64,000 nucleotides of DNA from Minisyncoccota bacterium (GTDB lineage Bacteria > Patescibacteriota > Minisyncoccia > UBA6257 > JAGOQP01). Where the stretch lies: contig JAGOQP010000002.1 of assembly GCA_017991375.1 (NCBI GenBank), forward strand, positions 2,259 through 66,258, in the 5' to 3' direction. The notes below the pieces were generated by a model, which was given only the letters and a program-made list of their open reading frames with translations, was not told where the DNA came from and made no database searches. The position numbers and the translations under genes are program-made. The first letter of the stretch is position 1. Each line of letters begins with the position of its first letter. Positions 10,568-63,851 of this stretch are shown here, in pieces.

Positions 10568-10618
10568 TTAACGATTAAAGATGAAAGATAGATGGGTTAC
10601 ATGTAGAACGATAAACGT
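10568..10618. repeat. AT-rich direct repeat TTAACGATTAAAGATGAAAG..., copy 1
   Basis: About 80% identical to 11015-11068; the two copies bracket ORF 10697-11002. Confidence 0.6.
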
Positions 10619-10696
10619 GAAACGAGTCATAGATCAATACCATACCGTTAAGGATTAACGATCAATTTATCTGTTCCTCTTCTAACTTCCTTCTGT

Positions 10697-11002
10697 CTAT
10701 TCGTCTTCTTCTAAAATCTTTAGTATCATATCTTCCACGCTGATTTTTCCCATAGGTCGTTTACCATCGGATGATGTATCCAGTTCTTCCCATCGGGGTA
10801 TATAGCTCATTACTCCATTTTTTTTCGGGATGATAAAATGTTCATCGCTGAGCGTTATCTCAACATGAGGAAATTTTTCTCGCATTTTTCTTATGAGTTT
10901 TTGCGCGCGATCTGTTTCAATCCAATTTGAGTGGCCTCTGTTTCCATGGGAATCTTTTGTTTGTTCAATTTGTCGTGCCCAGTCGTTTTTTATGTGTTCC
11001 AT
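10697..11002 (-). CDS. hypothetical protein (101 aa)
   Basis: Intact ORF between direct repeats; no recognisable motif. Confidence 0.45.
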   Translation of the reverse strand: MEHIKNDWARQIEQTKDSHGNRGHSNWIETDRAQKLIRKMREKFPHVEITLSDEHFIIPKKNGVMSYIPRWEELDTSSDGKRPMGKISVEDMILKILEEDE

Positions 11003-11014
11003 AAATTTCTTTTG

Positions 11015-11068
11015 CTAACGATTAAAGATAAAAGGTAGATGAGTTAAATGTATAATGGTAAACGTTGT
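11015..11068. repeat. AT-rich direct repeat copy 2 (CTAACGATTAAAGATAAAAGGTAGATGAG...)
   Basis: See 10568-10618. Confidence 0.6.
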
Positions 11069-11129
11069 GCGATTATCAATTAACGATGAAAAGTAAAAGA
11101 TGAATGATCGTCCGCTCCTTCCTTCTTCA

Positions 11130-25462: not shown

Positions 25463-25579
25463 TTTCGTAGTCGCGAATAACCATTAATCATTCATCTTTA
25501 ATCATTAACCGAGAGTAACATGTATCGCATTTCGTAGTTTATTAAAAATATAATATAAAATAAAAAGTAATAAAAACGT

Positions 25580-25942: not shown

Positions 25943-26132
25943 TGCTTTTTGGATGTTGATTAATTGCTCATACGTCCCCGCCCTTTTGATTTCATAAAAA
26001 GGGCGGGGTTTGATTTTAGGAGCGCATTATCGGTACACTTATTAAGTAGATGAACATCCTTACGCTTTGAGTTTCTTATTCTGTTTTAATCTGCGTTGTT
26101 AGTGGTCAGTGGTAGGTTGTTAGTTACTATTT

Positions 26133-26204
26133 GCCCCCATAGTTCAATGGATAGAACGACTCCCTTCTAAGGAGTAAATCTAGGTTCGATTCCTAGCGGG
26201 GGTA
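26133..26204 (+). tRNA. tRNA-Arg (anticodon UCU)
   Basis: Acceptor GCCCCCA/CGGGGGT, D-arm GTTC-AATGGATA-GAAC, anticodon stem ACTCC/GGAGT with loop CTTCTAA, T-arm CTAGG-TTCGATT-CCTAG. Confidence 0.8.
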
Positions 26205-26356
26205 CGGAGTATCCACGAGCAAGCAAATAATTTTGCTTGCGTCAGGAATCGAACGCCGGAGCTTGTGCGAGTGAGCACACGAGCACGCGAGGCGGTGCCT
26301 AGCCCGAGTTGAGCGACGGCGAAACGAGAGGCGAAGGAGATTTCCTAGCGGGGGTA
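26205..26356 (+). repeat. tRNA 3'-associated conserved structured element ending in a duplicated tRNA-Arg 3' end
   Basis: Hairpin GCAAGCAAATAATTTTGCTTGC; core GAATCGAACGCCGGAGCTTGTGCGAGTGAGCACACGAGCACGCGAGGCGGTGCCTAGCCCGAGTTGAGCGACGGCGAAACGAGAGGCGAAGG; then TTTCCTAGCGGGGGTA, which equals the last 16 nt of the tRNA. The same core lies after tRNA-Tyr (51172-51373); a covarying version lies after tRNA-His (27152-27310). Confidence 0.8.
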
Positions 26357-26436
26357 CGAACGAGTGGAAAGTGAAAAGTGGAAAGTTAAACGAATAAAAG
26401 CAAAGCAAATTGAAGGATGGAAAGTTAAACGATTGG
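26357..26436 (+). repeat. GGAAAGTTAAACGA-type short direct repeats
   Basis: CGAACGAGTGGAAAGTGAAAAGTGGAAAGTTAAACGAA...GGATGGAAAGTTAAACGA; the same block occurs (reverse strand) beside tRNA-Arg(CCU) at 11130-11298. Confidence 0.8.
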
Positions 26437-26663
26437 TCGTTGGTCATTGATTCTTAACCGCAAGACACTCATCTTTAATCGAGAGAGATGGTAGTTAGTT
26501 TTAAGATCAATCCTTGCGTAAGCACTGTTTTCGTATTAGAATACGTTTTGCGTATTTTTATTAATCCCAGTCACTGGTTGTCTGTTGTTAGTCGTTTGTT
26601 GTCTGCCTACGGCAGATCCTGAGCGTAAGTCGAAGGGTAAGTTACTCATATGCCGCGGTAGCT

Positions 26664-26699
26664 CCCTCCGTCGTCCATTTGTGATGGACTATGGAAGGG
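26664..26699 (-). repeat. REP-like hairpin element, copy 3
   Basis: Reverse complement CCCTTCCATAGTCCATCACAAATGGACGACGGAGGG; immediately preceded by a 13-nt tRNA-Phe 5' fragment (GCCGCGGTAGCTC). Confidence 0.7.
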
Positions 26700-26765
26700 C
26701 ACGCAGTGTGCTCCTAGTGTTTGTGCCGTTGTCTGTTGTTAGTCGTTTGTTGTTTGTTGCTATAT

Positions 26766-26872
26766 GCCGCGGTAGCTCAGTGGGTTTAAAGCAAACGATT
26801 TTGCTTTAAACGGGAAATCCAAAAGATATATTGGATTTTCCCTGGAAGAACAGAAAACCGAAGGTCTGCGAT
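26766..26872 (+). repeat. tRNA 5'-associated element: duplicated tRNA-Phe 5' end (18 nt) plus conserved two-hairpin module
   Basis: GCCGCGGTAGCTCAGTGG, then GTTTAAAGCAAACGATTTTGCTTTAAAC (hairpin), GGGAAATCCAAAAGATATATTGGATTTTCCC (hairpin), TGGAAGAACAGAAAACCGAAGGTCTGCGAT; about 90% identical module at 51838-51948 led by the tRNA-Thr 5' end. Confidence 0.8.
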
Positions 26873-31267: not shown

Positions 31268-31348
31268 ACAAAAATAGGATGTATTTTTATAAACACCCTC
31301 GGTATATGCCGAGGATGTTTTGGTATGTGATGTATCGCCCGAAAGCAC

Positions 31349-31378
31349 TTGACAAAATAGCATAAAATGTGCTATAAT
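31349..31378 (+). promoter_or_regulatory. consensus sigma70-type promoter TTGACA-N18-TATAAT
   Basis: ttgacaaaatagcataaaatgtgctataat; upstream of the GC-rich ORF at 31523. Confidence 0.6.
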
Positions 31379-31522
31379 CTGTTTGTTACAAGCACGCTAA
31401 CATATTACTTGCAGATAACAGCTCACAAAAACTGTACATGGGAATTGACCCAAAAACAGTGGTGAGCTCTTACACAGCATGGAGCCCGACTAGGAATCGG
31501 GTAAGATGCCAAGGAGGATACC

Positions 31523-31939
31523 ATGGCAAAAAGTGTTCAGTTTGTTCTCCCCTCCGCTCTCACTCTGCCCTTTTGGGCAAGGGGGGTGGCGGAAAACCAC
31601 GAAGAACCCTTTGTCGGCAAGAACGTGGAGCTCGAGTTGGTTGAGTTCTGCTCTGCCGGCGAGCCATACACCAGTGGCGAGGAGATGCTCAGGCGCTCTC
31701 TCGCCAAGACCATGCCCACGGGCAACCGGACATTCGAGCACTTGGCCGCCCATCAGGAGATCATTCCGGAGGAGTGGCGGGAGTTTGTGCTCGTTTTCCC
31801 CGGTACGGTTCTGCTCGACGAGCGCGGCCTTCGCTGCGTTCAGTGCCTGGCCGTCCGCAATGGCCGGTGGGGTCGGTACGACTATTGGCTCAGTCGCAAC
31901 CTCCGCTCCTGCTGCCGCGTCGTCGGATTCTGCAAGTAG
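31523..31939 (+). CDS. GC-rich (about 60%) hypothetical Cys-containing protein (138 aa), probably horizontally acquired
   Basis: AAGGAGG 5 nt upstream of the ATG; compositionally distinct from flanks; C-terminus RCVQCLAVRNGRWGRYDYWLSRNLRSCCRVVGFCK. Lies where rplA is expected downstream of rplK. Confidence 0.55.
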   Translation: MAKSVQFVLPSALTLPFWARGVAENHEEPFVGKNVELELVEFCSAGEPYTSGEEMLRRSLAKTMPTGNRTFEHLAAHQEIIPEEWREFVLVFPGTVLLDERGLRCVQCLAVRNGRWGRYDYWLSRNLRSCCRVVGFCK

Positions 31940-32074
31940 TTTTCCCTGGGGATCTTGGAGTTCTTGCGCTCTGCCGCGCTTGGCTCCTTGGTCCCTTTTA
32001 ATTTTTCAACAAAACTGATATGGTGGAAACGGATATTAGGTTCGTATGCGTACGGTCAAGAATTTTGCGTCTTG

Positions 32075-35169: not shown

Positions 35170-35331
35170 ATGTTGGAAGTACTTTTGCTGTCGCTCCCGA
35201 TCACAGCTCCTCTCCTTATCGGTGGGGGGCTGGTCGTCCTCTTCGTCAGAAAGAGGGCGATCACCACGCTGCGCCGGAGGAAGAACAGCCGGCACAGCAA
35301 GAGGCCCCACCAGAAGAAGCTCGTGATCTAG
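35170..35331 (+). CDS. 53-aa GC-rich small membrane peptide with polybasic tail (type I toxin-like)
   Basis: MLEVLLLSLPITAPLLIGGGLVVLFVRKRAITTLRRRKNSRHSKRPHQKKLVI; AAGGAGG 6 nt upstream; rho-independent terminator downstream; not on the >=60-aa ORF track. Confidence 0.55.
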   Translation: MLEVLLLSLPITAPLLIGGGLVVLFVRKRAITTLRRRKNSRHSKRPHQKKLVI

Positions 35332-35440: not shown

Positions 35441-35480
35441 TATGTTACAAAAATTAGCGATCGCTAATTTTTGTAACATA
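35441..35480. repeat. 40-bp perfect palindrome TATGTTACAAAAATTAGCGATCGCTAATTTTTGTAACATA (copy 1)
   Basis: Self-complementary; copies also at 36189-36224 and 55707-55740. Confidence 0.95.
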
Positions 35481-35585: not shown

Positions 35586-36155
35586 ATGAGACGCGTCTCG
35601 CGAATCGAGTTTTTGAAAAATGTGCATAGTGGTAATTTTTCAAATGCATTTACGGCATTCCTGTTTTCGTTTGGGTCGGTCGATATTCTACGAAAAAATT
35701 TGAGATCTATTGGAAATAATAGTTCGATAGATTGTCATGATGATGAGAGAAGAAAACTGAAAAGAAGATTTGATGTGGTTATGTGCCGTCTTAAAAAAGA
35801 TGGGATGATAAAAGAAGATGGGCATATAACAAAGAGGGGAATTATTTTTTTATCAAGTATTATTGGTCGTGAAAGTAAATATTTACCGACGCGATCATAT
35901 CAACATGGCAAAAGTGACACAATAACATTAGTCACATTTGATATCCCAGAAAAATATAAGAGATATCGCGAATGGTTACGGTTTGTTTTGCGAGATATGG
36001 GATTTTCGATGCTTCAGCGTAGTGTGTGGATAGGTAAAGTAAAAATTCCAAAGGAATTTTTGACGGATCTAAAAAACACTAAAATGATTCCATTCGTAGA
36101 AATAGTTGAAATCTCAAAACTCGGCTCTGTAGAAAGAATTTCCAATGCGGGATAA
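35586..36155 (+). CDS. winged-helix-like N-terminal domain fused to a Cas2-like C-terminal domain (orphan; PaaX-like architecture)
   Basis: C-terminus ITLVTFDIPEKYKRYREWLRFVLRDMGFSMLQRSVWIG aligns with Cas2 N-terminal beta-alpha-beta core (compare [38 protein letters not shown]); N-terminal ...RKLKRRFDVVMCRLKKDGMIKEDGHITKRG looks like a wHTH; no cas1/cas9 or CRISPR array in the window. Confidence 0.6.
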   Translation: MRRVSRIEFLKNVHSGNFSNAFTAFLFSFGSVDILRKNLRSIGNNSSIDCHDDERRKLKRRFDVVMCRLKKDGMIKEDGHITKRGIIFLSSIIGRESKYLPTRSYQHGKSDTITLVTFDIPEKYKRYREWLRFVLRDMGFSMLQRSVWIGKVKIPKEFLTDLKNTKMIPFVEIVEISKLGSVERISNAG

Positions 36156-36188
36156 TTTAAAAAAGTGATAAAAAAAGAAAACAAAGAG

Positions 36189-36224
36189 TGTTACAAAAAT
36201 TAGCGATCGCTAATTTTTGTAACA
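36189..36224. repeat. 36-bp perfect palindrome (copy 2 of GTTACAAAAATTAGCGATCGCTAATTTTTGTAAC)
   Basis: 34 bp downstream of the Cas2-like gene stop. Confidence 0.95.
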
Positions 36225-36356
36225 TGTGTAAAATTTGCCCTGCCATCAATTATGATAAGCTACAATAAATAATAGAAGACCATAGTAAACCATAAAAATA
36301 GAGCTTGATCGATACAAGCTCTATTTTTATAAGTGTTTTGGTGTTTCCGTACTGTT

Positions 36357-47988: not shown

Positions 47989-48177
47989 AAATGAATAAAA
48001 ACGCTCCCGATGTTATATCGGGAGCGTTTTTTGAGGGCAAAATAAATTATAAAACATAGCGCATAATCTTACTCTTACATTCTCTATTTAACGTTCCACA
48101 TTCAATCCTGTGTTGGTTGCCTTTCTGTTTTTTACAGTATACGCTATACAGTGTGTAGTGTGTGCTATACCTTTCTT

Positions 48178-48840
48178 ATGATTTTTCATATTCTCTCAGT
48201 CATTCCTCATGTATTGGATGCGTATGTTAATGAATCCATCGTGGGGCGTGCTCAAAAGAAAAAACTACTATCGGTTAAAACGTACAATATCCGTACGTGG
48301 GCGACTGACAAGCATAAAAAAGTTGACGATCGTCCATTTGGTGGGGGAGCAGGAATGGTTTTGAAGGTTGAGCCTATCTATAGAGCAGTTGCATCAATTC
48401 GTGCCGCGATAGCAAGAGGAAGAAAAAAAACAAAAACACGAGTGATTCTCTTTAGTACGCGTGGGACACTCTTTACCCAAGAGAAGGCAACGCAACTTTC
48501 TAAATACAATCATATTATTCTCATCTGTGGACGCTATGAAGGAGTTGATGAGCGTGTCGCTCGCTATATTGCCGACGAAGAAATTTCTTTAGGCGATGTG
48601 GTATATTCAGGGGGGGAAATTCCCGCGCTCGCTGTGGTGGACGCAGTTGCGCGAAAAATACCAGGGGTATTGGGGAAGTATGAATCGTTGGAAGAGATTC
48701 AGGGAAGCTATCCAACATATACTCGTCCGGAAATATTTATTCCTGATTCAAAGAACAAAAAGAAAAAGTGGATAGCGCCCGCGGTACTAAGATCTGGTGA
48801 TCACAAAAAAATAGAAAACTGGCGGGCAATTGACAAATAA
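48178..48840 (+). CDS. trmD: tRNA (guanine37-N1)-methyltransferase
   Basis: [20 protein letters not shown]...; start at the internal ATG. Confidence 0.9.
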
Positions 48841-48911
48841 TAATTTGTATGCTATAATAGCGCACAGGACACTAAAAAATCACACACTCACGCTGCGAAA
48901 AGGAGATTCAC

Positions 48912-49121
48912 ATGCGTGGAATCGGTTTCATTTGGTTGGTTAACACCTTCGGCCTCTTTTGGTCGGGGGTAATACTTCTCACAGTCGCCACTTTCCTCGC
49001 CGTCTGCGCGGCAAGGAAATACGCTCAGAGAAAGGGGATGTTCTGGCACGCCGTTGGCGTCGTATCAATTGGTATCGGCGTTAACGGGATCAGGTATCTC
49101 TTGTTGTGGTTAAACAACTAG
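48912..49121 (+). CDS. small two-TM membrane protein (69 aa)
   Basis: AAAAGGAG ribosome-binding site; TATAAT at 48852. Confidence 0.45.
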   Translation: MRGIGFIWLVNTFGLFWSGVILLTVATFLAVCAARKYAQRKGMFWHAVGVVSIGIGVNGIRYLLLWLNN

Positions 49122-49380
49122 TTGGGTGTAGTGTGGTGCCCTCTCTTCCCCAGAGTCGCTAGATTCTGGGGGTCGCCAGTGCGCATAACACACGTTGTTT
49201 GCAGTGGCGATCCATTCTCTTGATTTTTGAATTTATATTTTGTTATAGTGTAAACGGCGTTATGGAGCCGTTTTATTGTGCTCACAAATGACGCCTTATT
49301 ACAAAGTAAGAATAATTCAACTCTGTCGTTATTGCTACGCGATAAAGTGAAACGGAGTTAGCCGTAAAACGGCACATACT

Positions 49381-51171: not shown

Positions 51172-51373
51172 CATAATAAAATTATTTTCCTTCACGCAGT
51201 GAGCGTGAGGGAGTAATTTTATTAAGTTGGTCAAGAAAAAACCAACTGCTTGGTTTTTGAGTGAGAGTCGAACGCCGGAGCTTGTGCGAGTGACCACACG
51301 AGCACGCGAGGCGGTGGCTAGTCTGAGTCGAGTGACGACGAGACAAGAGGCGAGGCCGACTCTCACCCTACCC
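51172..51373 (+). repeat. tRNA 3'-associated conserved element ending in a duplicated tRNA-Tyr 3' end
   Basis: Hairpin CCAAGAAAAAACCAA-ctgc-TTGGTTTTTG; core GAGTCGAACGCCGGAGCTTGTGCGAGTGACCACACGAGCACGCGAGGCGGTGGCTAGTCTGAGTCGAGTGACGACGAGACAAGAGGCGAGGCC; then GACTCTCACCCTACCCA, equal to the last 17 nt of the tRNA. Confidence 0.8.
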
Positions 51374-51521
51374 ACTCGACGCGCCCTGAGTAAAATCGAA
51401 GGGCTTGCTCGTGGCAAGCCACATTCTATGAGTGAATTTCAAACACGCACGATAATCAGTTGTTATGAATTTTGTTGGTTCCTTGTTGTTAGTCGTGGGT
51501 GGTTAGTCGTTAGTTATATAT

Positions 51522-51545
51522 GCCATAGCTCAGCTGGGTTTATGG
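51522..51545 (+). repeat. truncated tRNA 5'-fragment + GTTTA module
   Basis: GCCATAGCTCAGCTGG-GTTTATGG; a decayed copy of the 5'-associated element upstream of tRNA-Thr(UGU). Confidence 0.5.
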
Positions 51546-51588
51546 ATTTTATTGTTAGTTGTAAGTAGTTAGTTGTTAGTCAATGCAT

Positions 51589-51660
51589 GCCACCTTAGCT
51601 CAGCGGTAGAGCAACTGTTTTGTAAACAGTAGGTCCCCGGTCCGAATCCGGGAGGTGGCT
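51589..51660 (+). tRNA. tRNA-Thr (anticodon UGU)
   Basis: Acceptor GCCACCT/AGGTGGC, anticodon stem ACTGT/ACAGT with loop TTTGTAA, T-arm CCCGG-TCCGAAT-CCGGG. Confidence 0.8.
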
Positions 51661-51837
51661 CAACTATCTGGACTTTTTTTATAATTTGAATACAATTATA
51701 ACGTGGTTCCAGATGCTTTATCGCTTGCTGTCTGTCTACGGCAGGTTCTGACTGGTGGTGAGTATAATCGAACCAGTAAGTGAAACGCATTGAAGGGTAG
51801 GTGATCGGTAGTTAGTTGTAAGTTGTTAGTTACATAT

Positions 51838-51948
51838 GCCAATGTAGCTCAGCTGGGTTTAAAGCAAACAATTTTGCTTTAAACGGGAAATCCAAAAAGA
51901 TATATTGGACTTTCCCCGGAAGAGCAAGCAACCGAAGGTATTGCGATG
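51838..51948 (+). repeat. tRNA 5'-associated element: duplicated tRNA-Thr(GGU) 5' end (19 nt) plus conserved two-hairpin module
   Basis: GCCAATGTAGCTCAGCTGG, then GTTTAAAGCAAACAATTTTGCTTTAAACGGGAAATCCAAAAAGATATATTGGACTTTCCCCGGAAGAGCAAGCAACCGAAGGTATTGCGATG; the intact tRNA begins 47 nt later. Confidence 0.8.
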
Positions 51949-55553: not shown

Positions 55554-55706
55554 TGTTTTTTACCAACCACCAACCACTAACAACTAATCACTATTCTTAT
55601 TGTAGCAGAAAAACCATACCATTTGTCAAAATGAGTAAAATCAAACAATAAATGCACAATGACACACAGACACGGGAGAATCGCAAAGAGAGCATGAAAA
55701 TTAAAC

Positions 55707-55740
55707 GTTACAAAAATTAGCGATCGCTAATTTTTGTAAC
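55707..55740. repeat. 34-bp perfect palindrome GTTACAAAAATTAGCGATCGCTAATTTTTGTAAC (copy 3)
   Basis: Identical core to the palindromes flanking the Cas2-like gene. Confidence 0.95.
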
Positions 55741-56045
55741 ATAGATAAAACATAGCAAGAGCAAGAAAGCAAAAGTTGTTTTTCCGTCTACGTTTCCGTA
55801 TTATGTACTAAGGAAGATTTAAAATAGATGAGTAAAATGTGGAATGAATGACAGAGTGAAACGAATGAGATGTGGTTAACAGTCAAAGATAAAAGATGAA
55901 TGATTACCCACATTTTCTGTATTCGACTCTGAGGGATGAACCCTCAGGTTCAGGCCCAAATGAGGGCGATTTATGGTGAGCTCGTCGAACCAGTGAAGTG
56001 AATAGAAAAATCCGTCGTTAGTTGTTTGTCGTTAGTTACTGTACT

Positions 56046-56702: not shown

Positions 56703-57003
56703 CAAATAATAGTAAATAGTGGAAAGAGGAAAGTGATTAATGGTTAGTCCTCCTACCCCGCCGCGGAGGGTACGAAAAAATAGGCTACGTAGTGGAGTGT
56801 TTAAAGTAGAACGTGAAACGTTGAACGAAGAAAAGAGGAATAAATAATCGTTGATCTTTAATCTTTAATCCTTAACTGGGAGCGGGGAGAGAATCATTAA
56901 TCTTTCATCGTTGATTATTAACCGCATGCCATTCATCTCTAATCGTTATTCGTAATCCATTACCCGTTCCACGTTCATCGTTCCGCGTGTAACTTGTTTA
57001 GTG

Positions 57004-57032
57004 TTGACATTTGCTATCTTTTATGGTAACAT
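57004..57032 (+). promoter_or_regulatory. sigma70-type promoter TTGACA-N17-TAACAT
   Basis: ttgacatttgctatcttttatggtaacat; followed by a ~110-nt leader with alternative hairpins (GAACGCT...AGCGTTC and CGCTGGGAAA...TTTTCCAGCG). Confidence 0.5.
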
Positions 57033-57163
57033 CCGTCAGTTAATACAGCACTCTGGGAACGCTAAAAAAATCGCTGGGAAACTTACTTTTCCAGCGTTCA
57101 GGAAGTTTTGTTAGAAACCAAGAACGAAAACCCCAGACAACTTAGACCCAAAGGAGGTCTGCT

Positions 57164-58054
57164 ATGTCGAAGAAGCTCGTCGGCCTGTTTGTGGCGATTT
57201 TCATCGCCATCTTCGTCAACGTTTTCTGCGCGAACATCGCGTTCGCGCAGATGCCCGTGGGAACTGCGCCCGACATCCTCGCTCAGTGGGAAGAGGTCGA
57301 GTGCCCCAACGGGTACTACGACATCGGACGCGCTGCCGTCAACCGGAATCGGATTCTGGAAGACGGGGAGTGCTACGTGGAATTCGCGTTCGGGATCCCG
57401 GGGAAGATGGGATACCGGCGCGGGTTTGGGGGGAACCAGTGTCTCCCCAAGCGTGAGATGTTCATCATCGACAGGGCCTCCGTCAGTGAGACGGGGGTGA
57501 TCAACAAGGGTACGCGGGTCGACATCCGTCGATGCGGGAACGGTTTCGAGTTGGGGATCGTTCTCAACATCCTCAACGCGGAGCGCGTCGAAGGGGAGGG
57601 GTGCGAGATGGGCTTCTGGGAAAAGAAGCCGGACCCGCCGAAAGCTGAGGCGGCGCCGACTTCACCTCCAGCTCCACCAGCTCCACCAGCGCAGGAGACA
57701 CCAAAGGTGGATGCACCTCCGATCCCCTCAAGAACGACTGTCGTCAACAACTACCCCCCCGCCTTCTCCGACGAACAGGTCGCGGAGATGCTCAAGAAGG
57801 CGGTTCAACCTCCAAAGAAGGAGAGGGGTTGGTGGAATCGCAACTGGGGATGGGTCGCTGGTGGAGTCGTTGTCGCCGGCGCGGTCATCGCGCTTGGTGA
57901 CAAGAAGGACAAGAACGACAACGGCAACAAGCCGACCATCTCGGGGATCAAGGGGGTGGTGGCAGGAGGACGGAATTCGCCGCCACGATTTGCTGGTGGC
58001 GGGGGAGGGTTTGGTGGTGCTGGCATGACCGCCGGCATCCGTGTCCGCTTCTAG
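57164..58054 (+). CDS. GC-rich (about 62%) secreted Cys-containing, Pro-rich protein with C-terminal TM and Gly-rich tail (296 aa)
   Basis: AAGGAGG 6 nt upstream; signal peptide MSKKLVGLFVAIFIAIFVNVFCANIAFA; PAPPAPPAQETPKVDAPPIPS linker; TM WVAGGVVVAGAVIAL; composition unlike the host. Confidence 0.6.
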   Translation: MSKKLVGLFVAIFIAIFVNVFCANIAFAQMPVGTAPDILAQWEEVECPNGYYDIGRAAVNRNRILEDGECYVEFAFGIPGKMGYRRGFGGNQCLPKREMFIIDRASVSETGVINKGTRVDIRRCGNGFELGIVLNILNAERVEGEGCEMGFWEKKPDPPKAEAAPTSPPAPPAPPAQETPKVDAPPIPSRTTVVNNYPPAFSDEQVAEMLKKAVQPPKKERGWWNRNWGWVAGGVVVAGAVIALGDKKDKNDNGNKPTISGIKGVVAGGRNSPPRFAGGGGGFGGAGMTAGIRVRF

Positions 58055-58071
58055 CAACAACTTCCTGGTGT

Positions 58072-58110
58072 GGGTCGCGCGTCAAAGGACACGCGCGACC
58101 CCACTGTTTT
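58072..58110 (+). terminator. rho-independent terminator
   Basis: GGGTCGCGCG-loop-CGCGCGACCC followed by CACTGTTTT. Confidence 0.65.
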
Positions 58111-58239
58111 AAAGCACTCAACTACAATATATTTGAGTATTTCAAAACGGTGCATATATGTACCGTGTACGTTACAATCATGTGTATTTTGAATGGCATA
58201 TTATCTCGTGGACACGTTAGGCAGTTTTACGGGATAGTG

Positions 58240-58268
58240 TTGACTTCCATCTATTTTTATGCTAGAAT
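58240..58268 (+). promoter_or_regulatory. sigma70-type promoter TTGACT-N17-TAGAAT
   Basis: ttgacttccatctatttttatgctagaat, 16 nt upstream of ATG 58285. Confidence 0.5.
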
Positions 58269-58284
58269 ATACACACGGTTTGTT

Positions 58285-61200
58285 ATGCGTAAAAAGCGCA
58301 TAAAATCTATGAAAAACATTATTATCAAAGCATCAATTGCGGTAGCGCTCGTTGTAGCGCTCGGTTTTGTGTTTGCGGGCGTTACTCACGCTCAAACACA
58401 GGCGCAATTTGATTCAAACTTTTTTGAGGTCGGAGATCACAAAGACACGGGGACGATAAATTGGCAAAAGGCCCTTTATAACATCAAACCAGGCGATCAG
58501 GTGCAATTTCTTTTCTCTCTGCATAACATCTCAAATGTAAAAGCACTGGATGCGCGCACCACATTGTCTGTTCAAAATTCGGGAAACGTTATTTCAATTA
58601 CGGGGCGTATTTGGGCTCAAAACGCTCCCGCAATTACCGAAACAGTAACTATTCACGCCGCTCCTGGGTATACCATTCGTCTTGATATTCAAAACGGTGA
58701 TTACGGTGGTGTGGGGGATGTAAATCCGGGACAAATCAAATACCACACAACTAATTTGCTCCCGATCACCGGAGGGCCTGTTACTCCTACGCTTACATGT
58801 ACAGCAAATGCAAGCCCTTCATCGGGGAATAGTCCGCTTTTAACCGTGCTTTCGGTTAATGCTCAAGGTGGAAGCGGGGGATACATGTATAAGTATGCAT
58901 ATGGCGATGGCGGATACACTGATTTTATTTCCAACGCATCGATTCCCTACACGTATGCTTCTAACGTATCAAAAACGTTTACAGCAACTATCACGGTAAA
59001 AGACAGTCAAAACAATCAAACATCATGTACCACACAGGTAGCGGTAACTGTAACACAAACAGGTGGCGCTCCCATTGTTCAAACAAACGCGGCAACTATT
59101 GTCGCGCAAGTAAGCGCCGTTCTTAACGGATCAGTCAATCCTAATGGCGCTAATACGATGTATTGGTTTGAGTACGGCACATCAAATAATCTTGGAAATA
59201 ACACGCCTTCGCAAAACATCGGATCGGGAACATCGGCACAATCGGTCTCTGCTCAACTAACAGGACTTTCGGGGAATACTACTTATTACTTTCGTGTTAC
59301 GGCGCAAAATACATACGGCGTATCACGTGGCCAGATTCTTACCTTCACGACAACCGGCGATGGTGGGTTAGTAAACTCATCACTTTCGTTGCAAGCATTA
59401 GAGCGTACCAATTGTAACGCGTCGGGCGGCACTCCTATCTCGGGTGTGCGTATGCCAATTCGCAATCCACGTAATTTACTAGTGTATAGTGGAAACACCA
59501 ACTCAGGTACGTCATTTCCAGTAACGGTTGCGGGAAATTATACTGCCGAAACTCCATCGGGATATGGCAATCGCCAATTCTGTCGCTTTGAAGGATCCCC
59601 AGCATATTTTGATCAAAACAATCAGACAAAAACCATTACAGCCATCTTTGCGGTTCAACAGAGCGGAGGGGCCCCCATCGTTCAAACCAATAGCGCGACT
59701 AACATCTCGCAAACGGGTGCAACGCTCAATGGTTCAGTCAATCCTAACGGCGCCAACACCAACTACTGGTTTGAGTACGGCACCTCAATGTCATTGGGGA
59801 ATAACACTCCGATGCAAAGCGCTGGATCAGGAACATCAGCACAATCAGTATTTGCTTCGCTGACCGGACTTTCTGCTAACACCACATATTACTTCCGTAC
59901 CGTTGCGCAAAACCAATATGGTACTACTCAGGGTTCTATCTTGAGTTTTACCACGGGGACAAATACTCAGTGCCAAATCCCATTCGCGTCAACCGCGGCG
60001 GCAACTAATATTAGTGCGTCTTTGGCAACGCTTAATGGAACAATTAATGGAAATGGATGCCAAACAACCTACTGGTTTGAGTACGGCACCTCAATGTCAT
60101 TGGGGAATAACACTCCAACACAGAATGGTGGAACTGGAAGCGCGCAAGCATACGCATCTGTGTCAAACCTTGCGGCCAATACCACATACTATTTTCGTGT
60201 GATGGCGCAAAATCAACAGGGATCAGCGCAAGGATCAATTTTGAGTTTTACGACGGGGAATGGAGGTGGTGGATCTGCCCCCATCGTTCAAACCAATAGC
60301 GCGACTAACATCTCGCAAACGGGTGCAACGCTCAATGGTTCAGTCAATCCTAACGGCGCCAACACCAACTACTGGTTTGAGTACGGCGCCTCAATGTCAT
60401 TGGGGAATAACACTCCGATGCAAAGCGCTGGATCAGGAACATCAGCACAATCAGTATTTGCTTCGCTGACCGGACTTTCTGCTAACACCACATATTACTT
60501 CCGTACCGTTGCGCAAAACCAATATGGTACTACTCAGGGTTCTATCTTGAGTTTTACCACGGGGACAAATTCAGGAAGTTCTCCGTATGTCCAAACCAAT
60601 AGCGCGACCAACATTTCGCAAACAAGCGCAACGCTCAATGGGCAGGTTAATCCAAACAATTCAAACACAACGTACTGGTTTGAATATGGAACGACCAGTG
60701 GTCTTGGAAATACCACTCAAACACAAAGCGCCGGATCGGGAAACAACACTACTAATATCTCGCAATACGTTTCTGGGCTTACGAGCAACACCACGTATTA
60801 CTTCCGCGCGGTTGCGCAAAATCAGTATGGTACTTCATACGGACAAATTCTTACGTTTACCACCAATACGGGTGGGGGAGGATCTGCTCCGATAGTGCAA
60901 ACCAACAGCGCGACCAACATCTCGCAATCATACGCGACTCTAAACGGATCGGTGAATCCAAACAATGCCAACACCAACTACTGGTTTGAGTACGGCACTA
61001 ACGGAAACTTGGGGAACTCAACAGTGATGCAAAATGCCGGATCGGGAAATTACAGCATGAACATCTCCCAGTATCTTTCGGGGCTAATGTCTAACACGAC
61101 CTACTACTTCCGCGCGGTGGCGCAAAATCAATACGGTACTTCGTATGGACAAATTCTCACGTTTGTAACAAACACAGGAGGTGGAAGCTGTACCATTTCC

Positions 61201-62406
61201 CCGAATGTATGGACTAATAGCGCAAACAGCATTTCTTCAAATGGGCTTACTTTCAATGGCCAAGTAACAGCCAATGGAGACAACGCGTATGCGTGGTTTG
61301 AGTATGGAACAGGAAGTGGCTATTTGAGCTACACCACCAACTCAACCAACGTAAGCAACTGGAGTGGTTCTCAGAACGTTTCACAGTCGGTGTACAATCT
61401 CTCATCGGGAGCAACGTACTATTATCGTATGGTAGCGCGCAATAACTGTGGAACGTCATATGGGCAAACATTATCAGCAACAACGGGAGGATATTACTAC
61501 GATGGGCAAGCGCCTTATGTCGTAACACTTCCGGCTACGTACGTGTATCGCAATTCAGCGCTTCTTAACGGTCAAATCAATCCCAATGGCAGTATGACTA
61601 CAGGATGGTTTGAGTATGGAACAACTATGAACTTGGGATCACGAACGCCGACGCAAGCAATGGGATCAGGATCATACCTTTCAAACATTGCGGCGGCACT
61701 TTCTGGGTTAGTACCAAACACAACCTACTACTTCCGCGCGGCGGCGCAGAACACGTATGGGACAGCATACGGCCAAGTATTAAGCTTCACCACACAAGGA
61801 CAACAGATTATTGTTACTCCTCCAAGCGAGCCAACGATTGTTATTCAACGATCGGGCGTGGTTACTACCGGATCGGGAACGTCGTGTGTGATCTTGGTAC
61901 CGGCATTGGATGTGTCTGAATTACTCCCAGGTCAAACCTTTACGTATACCATTACGTATCGCAATGGATGTGCCTATAATTTGGGGAACGCGTTCTTGAA
62001 AGTTATCTTGCCGACTGAAACGGACTTTGTCTCTACTAACTATCCATTCTTCAATCGCGACGCGAACGGAATTTCATACAACCTTGGCGTTATCTCACAG
62101 AATTTCCAATCGGCGATTAGTATTAAGGGTATAGTGAAAGAAACGGTAAAACGGGGAGATACGTTAATCTTTAGCGCGGTGCTCAACTTTAACGACGCGC
62201 AGGGACGCTTTCAGTCAATTAGCGCCTATCTAACTGCGGTAGTTGGAGGAGCGCAAGTGCTTGGAGCTTCAATCTTTGGCGCATTCGCGGGACTCTTTAG
62301 TAACTGGCTCTTTGATCTGTTCTTAGTACTTCTTATCATCTTTGCTATTTGGTGGATCTTCTTTAGGAATAAAGAGTCATCGGTAAAAGTTGACGTGTTA
62401 AAATAA
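58285..62406 (+). CDS. giant cell-surface protein with about nine ~101-aa FN3/Ig-like repeats, N-terminal signal anchor and C-terminal TM anchor
   Basis: Repeats APIVQTNSATNISQTGATLNGSVNPNGANTNYWFEYGTSMSLGNNTPMQSAGSGTSAQSVFASLTGLSANTTYYFRTVAQNQYGTTQGSILSFTT; many N-x-S/T sequons; two repeat units (59671-59972 and 60277-60578) are about 99.7% identical at DNA level; start set at MRKKRIKS. Confidence 0.8.
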   Translation: MRKKRIKSMKNIIIKASIAVALVVALGFVFAGVTHAQTQAQFDSNFFEVGDHKDTGTINWQKALYNIKPGDQVQFLFSLHNISNVKALDARTTLSVQNSGNVISITGRIWAQNAPAITETVTIHAAPGYTIRLDIQNGDYGGVGDVNPGQIKYHTTNLLPITGGPVTPTLTCTANASPSSGNSPLLTVLSVNAQGGSGGYMYKYAYGDGGYTDFISNASIPYTYASNVSKTFTATITVKDSQNNQTSCTTQVAVTVTQTGGAPIVQTNAATIVAQVSAVLNGSVNPNGANTMYWFEYGTSNNLGNNTPSQNIGSGTSAQSVSAQLTGLSGNTTYYFRVTAQNTYGVSRGQILTFTTTGDGGLVNSSLSLQALERTNCNASGGTPISGVRMPIRNPRNLLVYSGNTNSGTSFPVTVAGNYTAETPSGYGNRQFCRFEGSPAYFDQNNQTKTITAIFAVQQSGGAPIVQTNSATNISQTGATLNGSVNPNGANTNYWFEYGTSMSLGNNTPMQSAGSGTSAQSVFASLTGLSANTTYYFRTVAQNQYGTTQGSILSFTTGTNTQCQIPFASTAAATNISASLATLNGTINGNGCQTTYWFEYGTSMSLGNNTPTQNGGTGSAQAYASVSNLAANTTYYFRVMAQNQQGSAQGSILSFTTGNGGGGSAPIVQTNSATNISQTGATLNGSVNPNGANTNYWFEYGASMSLGNNTPMQSAGSGTSAQSVFASLTGLSANTTYYFRTVAQNQYGTTQGSILSFTTGTNSGSSPYVQTNSATNISQTSATLNGQVNPNNSNTTYWFEYGTTSGLGNTTQTQSAGSGNNTTNISQYVSGLTSNTTYYFRAVAQNQYGTSYGQILTFTTNTGGGGSAPIVQTNSATNISQSYATLNGSVNPNNANTNYWFEYGTNGNLGNSTVMQNAGSGNYSMNISQYLSGLMSNTTYYFRAVAQNQYGTSYGQILTFVTNTGGGSCTISPNVWTNSANSISSNGLTFNGQVTANGDNAYAWFEYGTGSGYLSYTTNSTNVSNWSGSQNVSQSVYNLSSGATYYYRMVARNNCGTSYGQTLSATTGGYYYDGQAPYVVTLPATYVYRNSALLNGQINPNGSMTTGWFEYGTTMNLGSRTPTQAMGSGSYLSNIAAALSGLVPNTTYYFRAAAQNTYGTAYGQVLSFTTQGQQIIVTPPSEPTIVIQRSGVVTTGSGTSCVILVPALDVSELLPGQTFTYTITYRNGCAYNLGNAFLKVILPTETDFVSTNYPFFNRDANGISYNLGVISQNFQSAISIKGIVKETVKRGDTLIFSAVLNFNDAQGRFQSISAYLTAVVGGAQVLGASIFGAFAGLFSNWLFDLFLVLLIIFAIWWIFFRNKESSVKVDVLK

Positions 62407-63347: not shown

Positions 63348-63851
63348 ATGAAGTCAAAACAGCAAAAGATCAAAGAAATAGAACAAGAAACAGCGCTTGT
63401 TGATAGTGCTCAGTCGCTTATCTTCGTTGATTTTGCAAAAACGCCAACAAAAGATATTGTCTCTCTCAAGCAGGCGTTGGAGCATATAGAGAGCGTATAT
63501 AAGGTGGTCAAAAAGCGCTTGCTCAAAATTGTTTTAGGAAAAAAGGAAATTCCTGTTGATCCAAAATCATTTTCGGCACAGTTAGCAACCGTGTTTTCTC
63601 CTAAGGATATTTCAGAATCTGCGGGGGTGGTATACCGATTTGCAAAAGAGAGAGAAAAAGACGGGGGAGCGTTTAAGGTACTGGGAGGATACGACGTGAT
63701 CGCGCGTACGTTCTTTGGTGAACAAGATATCAAACGCATTGGACAACTTCCTTCTCGCGAAGTGCTCTTGGCACAGCTGGTCGGTATGGTCCAGGCACCG
63801 TTGCGATCTCTGGCGTATGTGCTTGATCAAGTAGCAAAGAAGAACGCGTAA
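63348..63851 (+). CDS. rplJ: 50S ribosomal protein L10
   Basis: ...REVLLAQLVGMVQAPLRSLAYVLDQVA typical L10 C-terminal region; followed by rplL. Confidence 0.8.
   Translation: MKSKQQKIKEIEQETALVDSAQSLIFVDFAKTPTKDIVSLKQALEHIESVYKVVKKRLLKIVLGKKEIPVDPKSFSAQLATVFSPKDISESAGVVYRFAKEREKDGGAFKVLGGYDVIARTFFGEQDIKRIGQLPSREVLLAQLVGMVQAPLRSLAYVLDQVAKKNA

Follow-up and report, generated by a model that had tools for sequence, protein, structure and literature searches.

We analysed a 64,000-nucleotide stretch of the genome of a Minisyncoccota bacterium (contig JAGOQP010000002.1 of assembly GCA_017991375.1, positions 2,259 to 66,258; hereafter the window), with a focus on one gene at 57004 to 58110, which we call X. 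A first-pass annotation made from the sequence alone had described X as a highly expressible small gene of deviant composition, with a promoter, an AAGGAGG motif, an open reading frame (ORF), a terminator, and a GC content of about 62%. All of these parts are in place (GC of 0.613 for the coding sequence [CDS]), and the unit does appear highly expressible. As predicted from its signals, X is one autonomous transcription unit composed of an extended −10 promoter, leader, Shine-Dalgarno (SD) sequence, ORF, and intrinsic terminator, with the following features.

57004 to 57032, plus strand: sigma-70-type promoter from a motif scan (−35 TTGACA at 57004-57009, 17-nt spacer, −10 TAACAT at 57027-57032)
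57039 to 57163, plus strand: 5′ untranslated leader of about 125 nt and 43% GC, counted from a predicted start site
57151 to 57157, plus strand: SD sequence AAGGAGG, with the ATG at 57164 beginning 6 nt later
57164 to 58054, plus strand: CDS of X (296 codons, 296 amino acids; the NCBI start is Met30)
57164 to 57250, plus strand: signal-peptide part by hydropathy, codons 1 to 29, ending in AFA with Q next
57251 to 57628, plus strand: predicted beta-rich ectodomain, residues 30 to 155, with Cys70, Cys124, and Cys147 invariant
57629 to 57823, plus strand: Pro-rich linker or stalk, residues 156 to 220, indel-rich and variable
57845 to 57898, plus strand: probable transmembrane (TM) anchor WGWVAGGVVVAGAVIALG, residues 228 to 245, followed by DKKDK
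57899 to 58051, plus strand: Gly-rich C-terminal tail, ending GIRVRF
58069 to 58110, plus strand: intrinsic terminator, 11 bp of which 9 are G-C, then a U-tract

The −10 element of the promoter matches the consensus at four of six positions and is preceded by the TG of an extended −10; three contigs with orthologues of X (L002, L005, and L007) conserve both hexamers as well as the TG. The gene downstream, which encodes a giant Fn3-repeat protein, has its own promoter in the motif scan (TTGACT-17-TAGAAT at 58240). The public NCBI model of X has 267 amino acids from Met30 and loses the signal peptide; the N-terminal extension is in frame in the orthologues, and AAGGAGG stands 6 nt before its first ATG.

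The signal peptide, Cys-containing domain, Pro-rich linker, and Gly-rich tail listed in the first-pass annotation were all found as sequence features. The cysteines of X are residues 47, 70, 93, 124, and 147, and the ectodomain motif YY..G..P.R..GEC..G.MG..GF.GN.C..CGNGF is common to all family members. PPAPPAPPA occupies residues 168 to 176 of the linker, and the tail contains GGGGGFGGAG. The TM helix proposed earlier is probable rather than certain: a hydrophobic segment lies at residues 228 to 245, and one is found at the anchor position in all family members, but the segment in X is Gly/Ala-rich and falls slightly under the strict Kyte-Doolittle cutoff. X has no LPXTG motif, and 51 residues follow the hydrophobic segment, which is not the layout of a sortase-anchored protein. 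Given the signal peptide, the Pro-rich stalk, and the anchor with its positive segment, X is predicted to be exposed on the cell surface, and its family is probably a small, uncharacterised group of type I membrane-anchored surface proteins. The ending IR[VL]RF is common to X (...AGIRVRF, 58034-58051) and the distant member P0013 (...LGIRLRF). With its alternating hydrophobic residues and final Phe, this ending resembles an outer-membrane beta-signal, an unexpected feature in a tail that is predicted to lie in the cytoplasm; we take the organism to lack an outer membrane, as a matter of general knowledge about candidate phyla radiation (CPR) bacteria.

A word-seeded search of 5.8 billion proteins returned only four close relatives of X. 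An exhaustive hidden Markov model search of 1.84 billion representative proteins added four distant relatives, and a profile search added one more. There was no family match to X in Pfam, NCBIfam, or PHROGs, and a profile search of the PDB gave no match at E ≤ 1. An AlphaFold2 model of full-length X built from 4 sequences had a predicted local distance difference test (pLDDT) score of 31. The family is known so far only from CPR-type genomic contexts.

X differs from its surroundings mainly at synonymous sites. GC at the first, second, and third codon positions (GC1, GC2, and GC3) of X is 0.61, 0.48, and 0.75, compared with a GC3 of 0.41 for PCMT directly upstream and 0.445 for the Fn3 gene directly downstream; ORFs of at least 80 amino acids in the window cluster near 0.41. 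Because the deviation is mainly synonymous, it is not due to amino-acid composition, which speaks against the alternative raised at first pass, that composition of the protein alone might explain the GC content. GC3 is 0.8 to 0.9 over codons 1 to 160, and the enrichment starts at codon 2 and ends at the stop codon; the 150-nt flanks of the CDS have a GC content of 0.41 to 0.42 (0.32 to 0.44 at the widest). Within X, the lowest GC3 (0.35) is that of the PAPPAPP stretch of the linker, the linker being the most variable part of the gene. Codon shares in X and in the background are 94% and 23% for AAG, 91% and 30% for GAC, 89% and 25% for ATC, and 73% and 19% for TTC. When codons are grouped by their first two bases, GC3 in X is 0.82 after two A/T bases (WW) and 0.60 after two G/C bases (SS), the reverse of the background trend (WW 0.31, SS 0.47). 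The orthologues compare with their own neighbours as follows.

Window: X GC3 0.75, neighbours 0.41 to 0.44
L002: X GC3 0.72, neighbours 0.38
L005: X GC3 0.68, neighbours 0.39 to 0.40
L007: X GC3 0.70, neighbours 0.33 to 0.37
L016: X GC3 0.61, neighbours 0.33
L019: X GC3 0.64, neighbours 0.37 to 0.48
L021: X GC3 0.65, neighbours 0.37 to 0.47
L023: X GC3 0.70, neighbours 0.36 to 0.44
L017: X GC3 0.44, neighbours 0.36

Eight of the nine orthologues are GC3-rich relative to their neighbours (0.61 to 0.75), and GC-rich codon usage is a persistent, CDS-confined property of this orthologue group. Contigs L019 and L021 differ by a synonymous divergence (dS) of at least 0.9 to 1.55 in all genes, including X. 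Both keep the GC3 excess at saturation, which could not have resulted from one ancient transfer and subsequent neutral amelioration. Two other causes were considered and rejected: ordinary translational selection, because ribosomal-protein and elongation-factor (EF) genes are GC3-normal, and overlapping or antisense coding, because the synonymous sites of X evolve freely. Literature searches for codon-usage outliers in CPR bacteria found no direct precedent.

X occupies a conserved slot in the order PCMT, X, giant Fn3 protein, ribosomal proteins L10 and L7/L12. PCMT is directly upstream and a giant Fn3-repeat gene directly downstream in every contig with an X relative (contigs L001 to L011, L016, L019 to L021, and L023 have this order). 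The close clade also encodes ribosomal protein L33 at a greater distance upstream; on the downstream side, L019 has L10 and L7/L12, and the window has L10 at 63348-63851. The slot was never met empty, X being present at the same site in every related contig recovered. PCMT is only 42 to 45% identical between the two clades, and X is 30 to 38% identical in its distant syntenic orthologues, with values of 33 to 38% against the window's X. Outside nine CPR-like contexts, no homologue of X was found among the 1.84 billion representative proteins; there was none in any GC-rich lineage or on the viral contigs of IMG/VR, no integrase or mobility gene near X, and no direct repeats or recombinase flanking it. 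X is a long-established gene at a conserved chromosomal position, not a recent import. The term "compositionally foreign" used at first pass does not hold: X has syntenic orthologues in deeply diverged genomes, eight of nine of them GC3-rich, and neither a donor nor a viral homologue in the collections searched.

These data bear on the possibility that X was recently acquired from a GC-rich donor and is now ameliorating, a reading that we consider very unlikely and that is already largely refuted. Like an acquired compositional islet, X deviates strongly in GC and codon usage (GC3 0.75 against 0.41), and it carries its own promoter and terminator, as an inserted cassette would. In the close clade, polarised third-position changes from G or C to A or T (S>W) number 33 and the reverse (W>S) 8, and a rough calculation from the per-site rates gives an equilibrium GC3 near 0.39, as expected if the excess were being lost. 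Unlike acquired islets, however, X passes vertically at one fixed locus and has kept its composition while synonymous divergence reached saturation: L019 and L021 still have a GC3 of 0.64 to 0.65, and the orthology at 30 to 38% identity, the lack of any outside or viral homologue in the collections searched, and the lack of mobility genes nearby all stand against a recent arrival. X has the atypical composition by which transfers are called, but not the patchy presence or the donor. Koski, Morton, and Golding reportedly cautioned in 2001 that unusual composition is a poor guide to transfer, a caveat with which X agrees.

Phage morons are promoter-gene-terminator units of deviant composition, and X likewise is autonomous, differs in composition from its neighbours, and lies between unrelated genes. 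A moron-like cassette of phage or other mobile origin, hopping between sites, could also account for the occurrence of at least four such cassettes among housekeeping genes within 64 kb, and one of these, the cassette at 31523, follows L11 in the window and EF-P in contig L012, with homology beginning about 10 nt upstream of the −35. The X locus, by contrast, is always the same. X is chromosomal and syntenic across deep divergence, its neighbours are L33, PCMT, the Fn3 surface protein, and L10 rather than phage or prophage genes, it has no match in PHROGs and no relative in IMG/VR, and neither direct repeats nor a recombinase lie beside it. We consider a mobile cassette very unlikely for X as well.

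The alleles of X vary independently of the genes around them, and one stretch of the gene is mosaic.

57281 to 57840, plus strand: mosaic block of X, about 560 bp, 54 to 92% identical to L005, with both flanks 98 to 100% identical

When the window is compared with L005, PCMT and the Fn3 gene on either side of X show a dS of 0.024 to 0.028 and a nonsynonymous divergence (dN) of 0.002, and their proteins are identical at two-decimal precision. X has a dS of 0.29 and a dN of 0.11; its differences are confined to 57281-57840, with sharp edges, and dS inside this block is 0.3 to 0.75. The ectodomain has a dS of 0.35 to 0.88 for every pair of orthologues, at a flank dS anywhere from 0.025 to about 2 (0.17 for L002, 1.3 to 2.1 for L007), and a dN/dS of 0.03 to 0.23. 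Between the window and L002, for example, ectodomain dS is 0.53 and dN 0.017. The dN/dS ratio is about 0.5 in the linker and about 1 in the signal peptide, and 0.16 to 0.38 over the whole of X, where changes are mostly at third positions. X shows the divergence decoupled from the genome, with mosaic blocks, that is expected of a recombining hypervariable locus, and this pattern is characteristic of long-standing alleles that lineages have exchanged through homologous recombination. Exposure to a host or to phage would drive diversifying selection and allele exchange at X, and the conserved leader and terminator would offer crossover anchors for homologous recombination. A diversity-generating retroelement (DGR) target was rejected as an explanation, because the changes, which extend across about 560 bp and include indels, are of every substitution type and fall largely at third positions. 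The window has 45 direct-repeat families, and X sequence is not repeated in any of the 20 largest.

The S-layer cassette of Clostridioides difficile is a hypervariable surface locus exchanged by homologous recombination. X resembles such loci in its predicted envelope or surface product, in divergence decoupled from the flanks, and in its mosaic blocks. Unlike them, it is small and single, with no repeat array and no DGR signature. We know of no report, for hypervariable surface loci, of a CDS-limited GC3 excess combined with an invariant leader and terminator. An extracellular hypervariable protein of a Gracilibacterium diversifies in nucleotide sequence while the protein is stabilised (PMC6851277), and the X ectodomain is similar in that its dS is high and its amino acids are strongly conserved. 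An outer membrane protein of Wolbachia is reportedly another hypervariable locus exchanged by recombination (PMC2843615). The family and the hypervariable behaviour of X are thus of known kinds; the deep persistence of its CDS-limited anomaly is unusual, and the cause of that persistence is what we infer below. The locus represents an uncharacterised, fast-diversifying surface-protein family beside a giant Fn3 protein, and in episymbiotic CPR bacteria both proteins could plausibly act in attachment to a host or in phage recognition. The Fn3 protein is syntenic with X everywhere and therefore may be its functional partner.

The promoter-proximal leader and the terminator are invariant within the close clade, and the leader is not conserved beyond it. 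The leader and terminator regions have the following features.

57017 to 57118, plus strand: 102-nt run identical between the window and L007, covering the −10, the start site, and the first approximately 80 nt of the leader
57052 to 57137, plus strand: possible long-range helix enclosing hairpin B (UCUGGG at 57052-57057 with CCCAGA at 57132-57137; probability 0.5 to 0.8)
57057 to 57099, plus strand: alternative hairpin A (GAACGCU at 57057-57063 with AGCGUUC at 57093-57099)
57072 to 57096, plus strand: hairpin B (CGCUGGGAAA, CUUAC loop, UUUUCCAGCG; 10 bp, −13.1 kcal/mol)
57144 to 57160, plus strand: SD-proximal hairpin (5 bp, AGACC with GGUCU; probability about 0.99), which half-buries AAGGAGG
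58060 to 58118, plus strand: 59 nt enclosing the terminator, the same in the window and in L007

The earlier description of a structured leader was correct in that a stable hairpin is present and extremely conserved in close homologues; the doubt expressed with it, that the structures might be conserved in no homologue, is at least partly answered by the same conservation. Hairpin B pairs CGCTGGGAAA (57072-57081) with TTTTCCAGCG (57087-57096) at a probability of 0.96 to 1.0. The L007 sequence upstream of the −35 cannot be aligned, and the L007 flanks are saturated. L002 differs from the window at five leader positions, all in hairpin B (three in the stem, two in the loop); the stem changes 57078 G>A, 57092 C>U, and 57093 A>G are all pair-preserving and one-sided. 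The history of the leader is therefore incongruent with that of the flanks, the distant L007 being identical over 102 nt and the closer L002 having five differences, which argues for constraint together with horizontal homogenisation and fits the role of a crossover anchor. In the possible long-range helix, A57135>G in L007 leaves a U-G pair amid diverged surroundings, which is weak support. The stems of the SD-proximal hairpin are invariant in the four close orthologues, with a variable loop position at 57149, and this hairpin forms independently of A and B. Among distant relatives, L019 and L021 have leaders of 35 to 45 nt that are unstructured and lack the element, and the long leaders of L016, L017, and L023 are unrelated in sequence and contain hairpins.

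The first-pass annotation had also pointed out two mutually exclusive arm pairs in the leader and had likened them to an attenuator or riboswitch. Both arm pairs exist, and hairpins A and B exclude each other because they overlap in AGCG. A cis-regulatory switch (riboswitch, protein or tRNA attenuator, or thermosensor) that toggles between them would make sense of this overlap, of the 102-nt invariance across lineages with saturated flanks, and of the hairpin near the SD sequence; both pairings also stay possible after the L002 stem changes, the long leaders of L017 and L023 appear by eye to have overlapping alternative hairpins, and that of L017 appears to close with a terminator-like stem and U-tract. 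However, the alternative fold is not competitive: hairpin A has a pair probability of about 0.01, and forced folds reach only −6.1 to −10.2 kcal/mol against −13.1 for hairpin B, or 3 to 7 kcal/mol worse. No U-tract or internal terminator follows either hairpin in the leader, which also contains no ATG; its only start codon, TTG at 57108, begins an ORF that extends into X in another frame, and L007 has indels just downstream of it. The whole-leader folding z-score is only −1.56. The suggested Rfam check gave no credible match: the whole window had none at gathering thresholds, and 56990-57200 at E ≤ 10 had only two chance-level matches on the minus strand, at 15 bits against gathering scores of 49 to 77. 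Exact searches with a 27-mer and a 23-mer of the leader found no match in genome contigs or in Joint Genome Institute (JGI) metagenome contigs, and a scan of the window that tolerated 3 mismatches met the leader only once. Together with the absence of the element from L019 and L021, these results leave a riboswitch or attenuator unsupported, and we consider a switch of any of these kinds improbable. The leader resembles attenuators and riboswitches in its length, conservation, and overlapping alternative pairings, but differs in having no aptamer match, terminator, or leader peptide.

The leader is more likely a lineage-specific 5′ stabiliser and initiation context, with a regulator-binding role possible. 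The 5′ untranslated region of Escherichia coli ompA and the leaders of S-layer genes, which are long and structured, contain stabiliser hairpins of abundant envelope-protein mRNAs. X would resemble these in its leader of about 125 nt, its stable hairpin near the 5′ end, its strong SD sequence, and its secreted envelope product, and, as in such units, it would be monocistronic with a strong terminator. It differs from them in showing no homology of sequence or structure and in having a coding body that is also GC-enriched and over-structured.

To quantify structure in the coding body, we folded CDS in 150-nt segments and compared them with synonymous shuffles. All eight GC3-rich orthologues of X are more stable than their shuffles (z = −5.2, −3.0, −1.9, −4.2, −3.4, −3.2, −6.1, and −4.8), compared with a mean z of about −0.7 and a minimum of −3.0 for 26 background genes (Mann-Whitney P = 1.7e-6). 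Exact dinucleotide-preserving shuffles gave z = −4.1, −2.5, −1.8, −3.1, −2.2, −4.0, −4.4, and −3.3 for X and a mean of −1.05 for 13 background genes (P = 9e-4, or P = 0.008 for four quasi-independent lineages). Folding energy is −0.39 kcal/mol per nt for X and −0.15 to −0.28 for other genes. The highest structure excess in the background belongs to TrmD (48151-48840), a GC-normal housekeeping gene, with z = −3.0 and −4.5 in the two tests. Within the signal-peptide codons of X, two local structures were found.

57191 to 57210 and 57225 to 57251, plus strand: two RNA hairpins in the signal-peptide codons, 98.7% of cells paired

In these hairpins, three pairs have changed on both sides, with the amino acids altered too, a result matched by 10 of 500 shuffles. 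The second hairpin has an 11-bp GC-rich stem that lies across the predicted signal-peptidase site.

Taken as a whole, our reading is that X is an old, recombining surface-protein gene whose GC-rich, over-structured mRNA is held by selection, and we consider this about as probable as its negation. The enrichment is limited to the CDS, depends on codon context, and adds structure, a pattern better matched by selection on the mRNA than by a neutral bias of the region. Such selection would maintain the GC excess; the message would be heavily structured, resistant to nucleases, or slowly translated, and the 5′ hairpin and strong 3′ terminator would cap it. The possible gain would be stability against AU-directed RNases or paced translation.

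The main rival to selection on the mRNA is GC-biased gene conversion at a recombination hot spot, in which heteroduplex repair favouring G/C, repeated over time, would have raised the GC content of X and would keep it high with no selection on RNA at all. Lassalle et al. are said to have proposed, in 2015, an association between recombination and GC3 in bacteria. Mosaicism and allele exchange at X are clear, GC1 and GC2 are raised as well as GC3, and a recent S>W excess alongside a stable long-term GC3 is what would be seen where AT-biased mutation meets GC-favouring fixation. On the other hand, the enrichment breaks off only a few nucleotides from either end of the ORF, GC3 within the gene is lowest in the indel-rich linker, which is its most variable part and lies in the recombining block, the dependence on codon context runs opposite to that of the background, and a force acting on composition only does not predict an excess over synonymous dinucleotide-preserving shuffles. 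In addition, the unrelated GC-rich family at 31523 is equally persistent, with no evidence of recombination so far. Weighing these, we judge gene conversion unlikely; if it did act here, X would be an unusually sharp bacterial case. If instead selection on mRNA structure or stability is the cause, it would mean that composition is tuned gene by gene in tiny genomes with few regulators.

Several observations weigh against selection on the X message or against parts of the account in which we place it. The proposed benefit is hypothetical, and the surface location and abundance of X are predictions from its sequence. The structure excess of X overlaps the tail of the background (in the dinucleotide test, TrmD at −4.5 and PCMT at −2.3), and RNAalifold on the 5′ 477 nt of the CDS found no net covariation for a global fold (term +0.75). 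The L017 orthologue is only weakly GC-enriched, and the genes for ribosomal proteins and EFs are GC3-normal. The S>W excess could mean slow decay; in a stationarity simulation, parsimony alone gave about 2:1, and 4:1 was reached in 2 to 4% of runs, so we treat the excess as modest and as fitting either slow decay or AT-biased mutation balanced by GC-favouring fixation. In the leader, three of three pair-preserving transitions would occur by our estimate about 1 time in 8 by chance, among four close sequences. Finally, L002 and L005 are short metagenome contigs, and strain-chimeric assembly is a possible source of the mosaic.

Atypical GC content and codon usage are routinely taken as a sign of transfer; X gives a strong signal of this kind, yet it is old, syntenic, and vertically placed. 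Its deviation outlasts complete synonymous turnover, so some gene-specific force holds the GC content. The persistence of GC-rich composition appears to extend to a class of genes in this lineage. A set of three such cassettes (31523, 35170, and X) had been proposed at first pass; the set exists, but it is larger, with at least four GC-rich cassettes of like design in the window (31523-31939, 35170-35331, 48912-49121, and X). In the 31523 family, the homologue at 70% identity has a GC3 of 0.73 and the one at 38% a GC3 of 0.71, amid DNA of about 43% GC; each gene is preceded by a TTGACA/TATAAT promoter and a leader of roughly 150 nt and is followed by a terminator. The promoter, the start of the leader, and the terminator are conserved, and folding z-scores are negative. 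This family spans 31343-32035 of the window, 4820-5753 of L012, and contig L024, and the L012 version, which follows EF-P rather than L11, has an N-terminal extension with a hydrophobic segment. A scan of IMG/VR found no relatives of gene 31523. The fourth cassette (48831-49190) begins with a TTGACA-17-TATAAT promoter and a leader of roughly 55 nt with AAGGAG, and GC-rich hairpins come after the gene; its product (48912-49121) is a two-TM protein of 69 amino acids with a GC3 of 0.67, and the cassette is absent from the TrmD-S2 junction of L019.

We suggest, tentatively and with more doubt than for X itself, that these cassettes belong to a class of small monocistronic surface or membrane genes kept GC-rich by a force on the coding RNA, namely selection for messages that are densely structured, resistant to nucleases, or slowly decoded. 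Such a class, to which X and the 31523 family would belong and perhaps also 35170 and 48912, would hold GC3 at 0.25 to 0.35 above that of the genome over order-level times, and this compositional armour would act together with the 5′ hairpin leader and the strong terminator. In that case, an atypical composition would point to a way of expressing genes and not to a foreign origin.

Other features of the window are of separate interest. A perfect 38-nt palindrome, ATGTTACAAAAATTAGCGATCGCTAATTTTTGTAACAT, occurs in three intergenic copies (35442-35479, 36188-36225, and 55705-55742; chance expectation none), two of which bracket an ORF with a Cas2-like/PaaX_M domain (35586-36155); it may be an element like the repetitive extragenic palindromic (REP) sequences, a bidirectional terminator, or a binding site. 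Degenerate periodic motifs similar to TAATC/TTTAATC, GTTGTTAG, and GATGAAAG occur in intergenic regions at 56845-56944, 25478-25503, 26455-26480, 10568-11108, 55805-55904, 26095-26756, and 51478-51829, many of which adjoin tRNA genes; one lies shortly before the X promoter. Non-tRNA segments at 79 to 98% identity recur in two tRNA-rich regions separated by about 25 kb (26246-26334 with 51265-51353, and 26781-26865 with 51854-51939), including an 89-nt GC-rich stretch, which may reflect a segmental duplication or an unannotated structured RNA. The giant Fn3-repeat protein (58285-62406) has a signal peptide and, at its C-terminus, a TM segment; its gene contains repeats some 300 nt long, two of which (59671-59964 and 60277-60570) are 100% identical.

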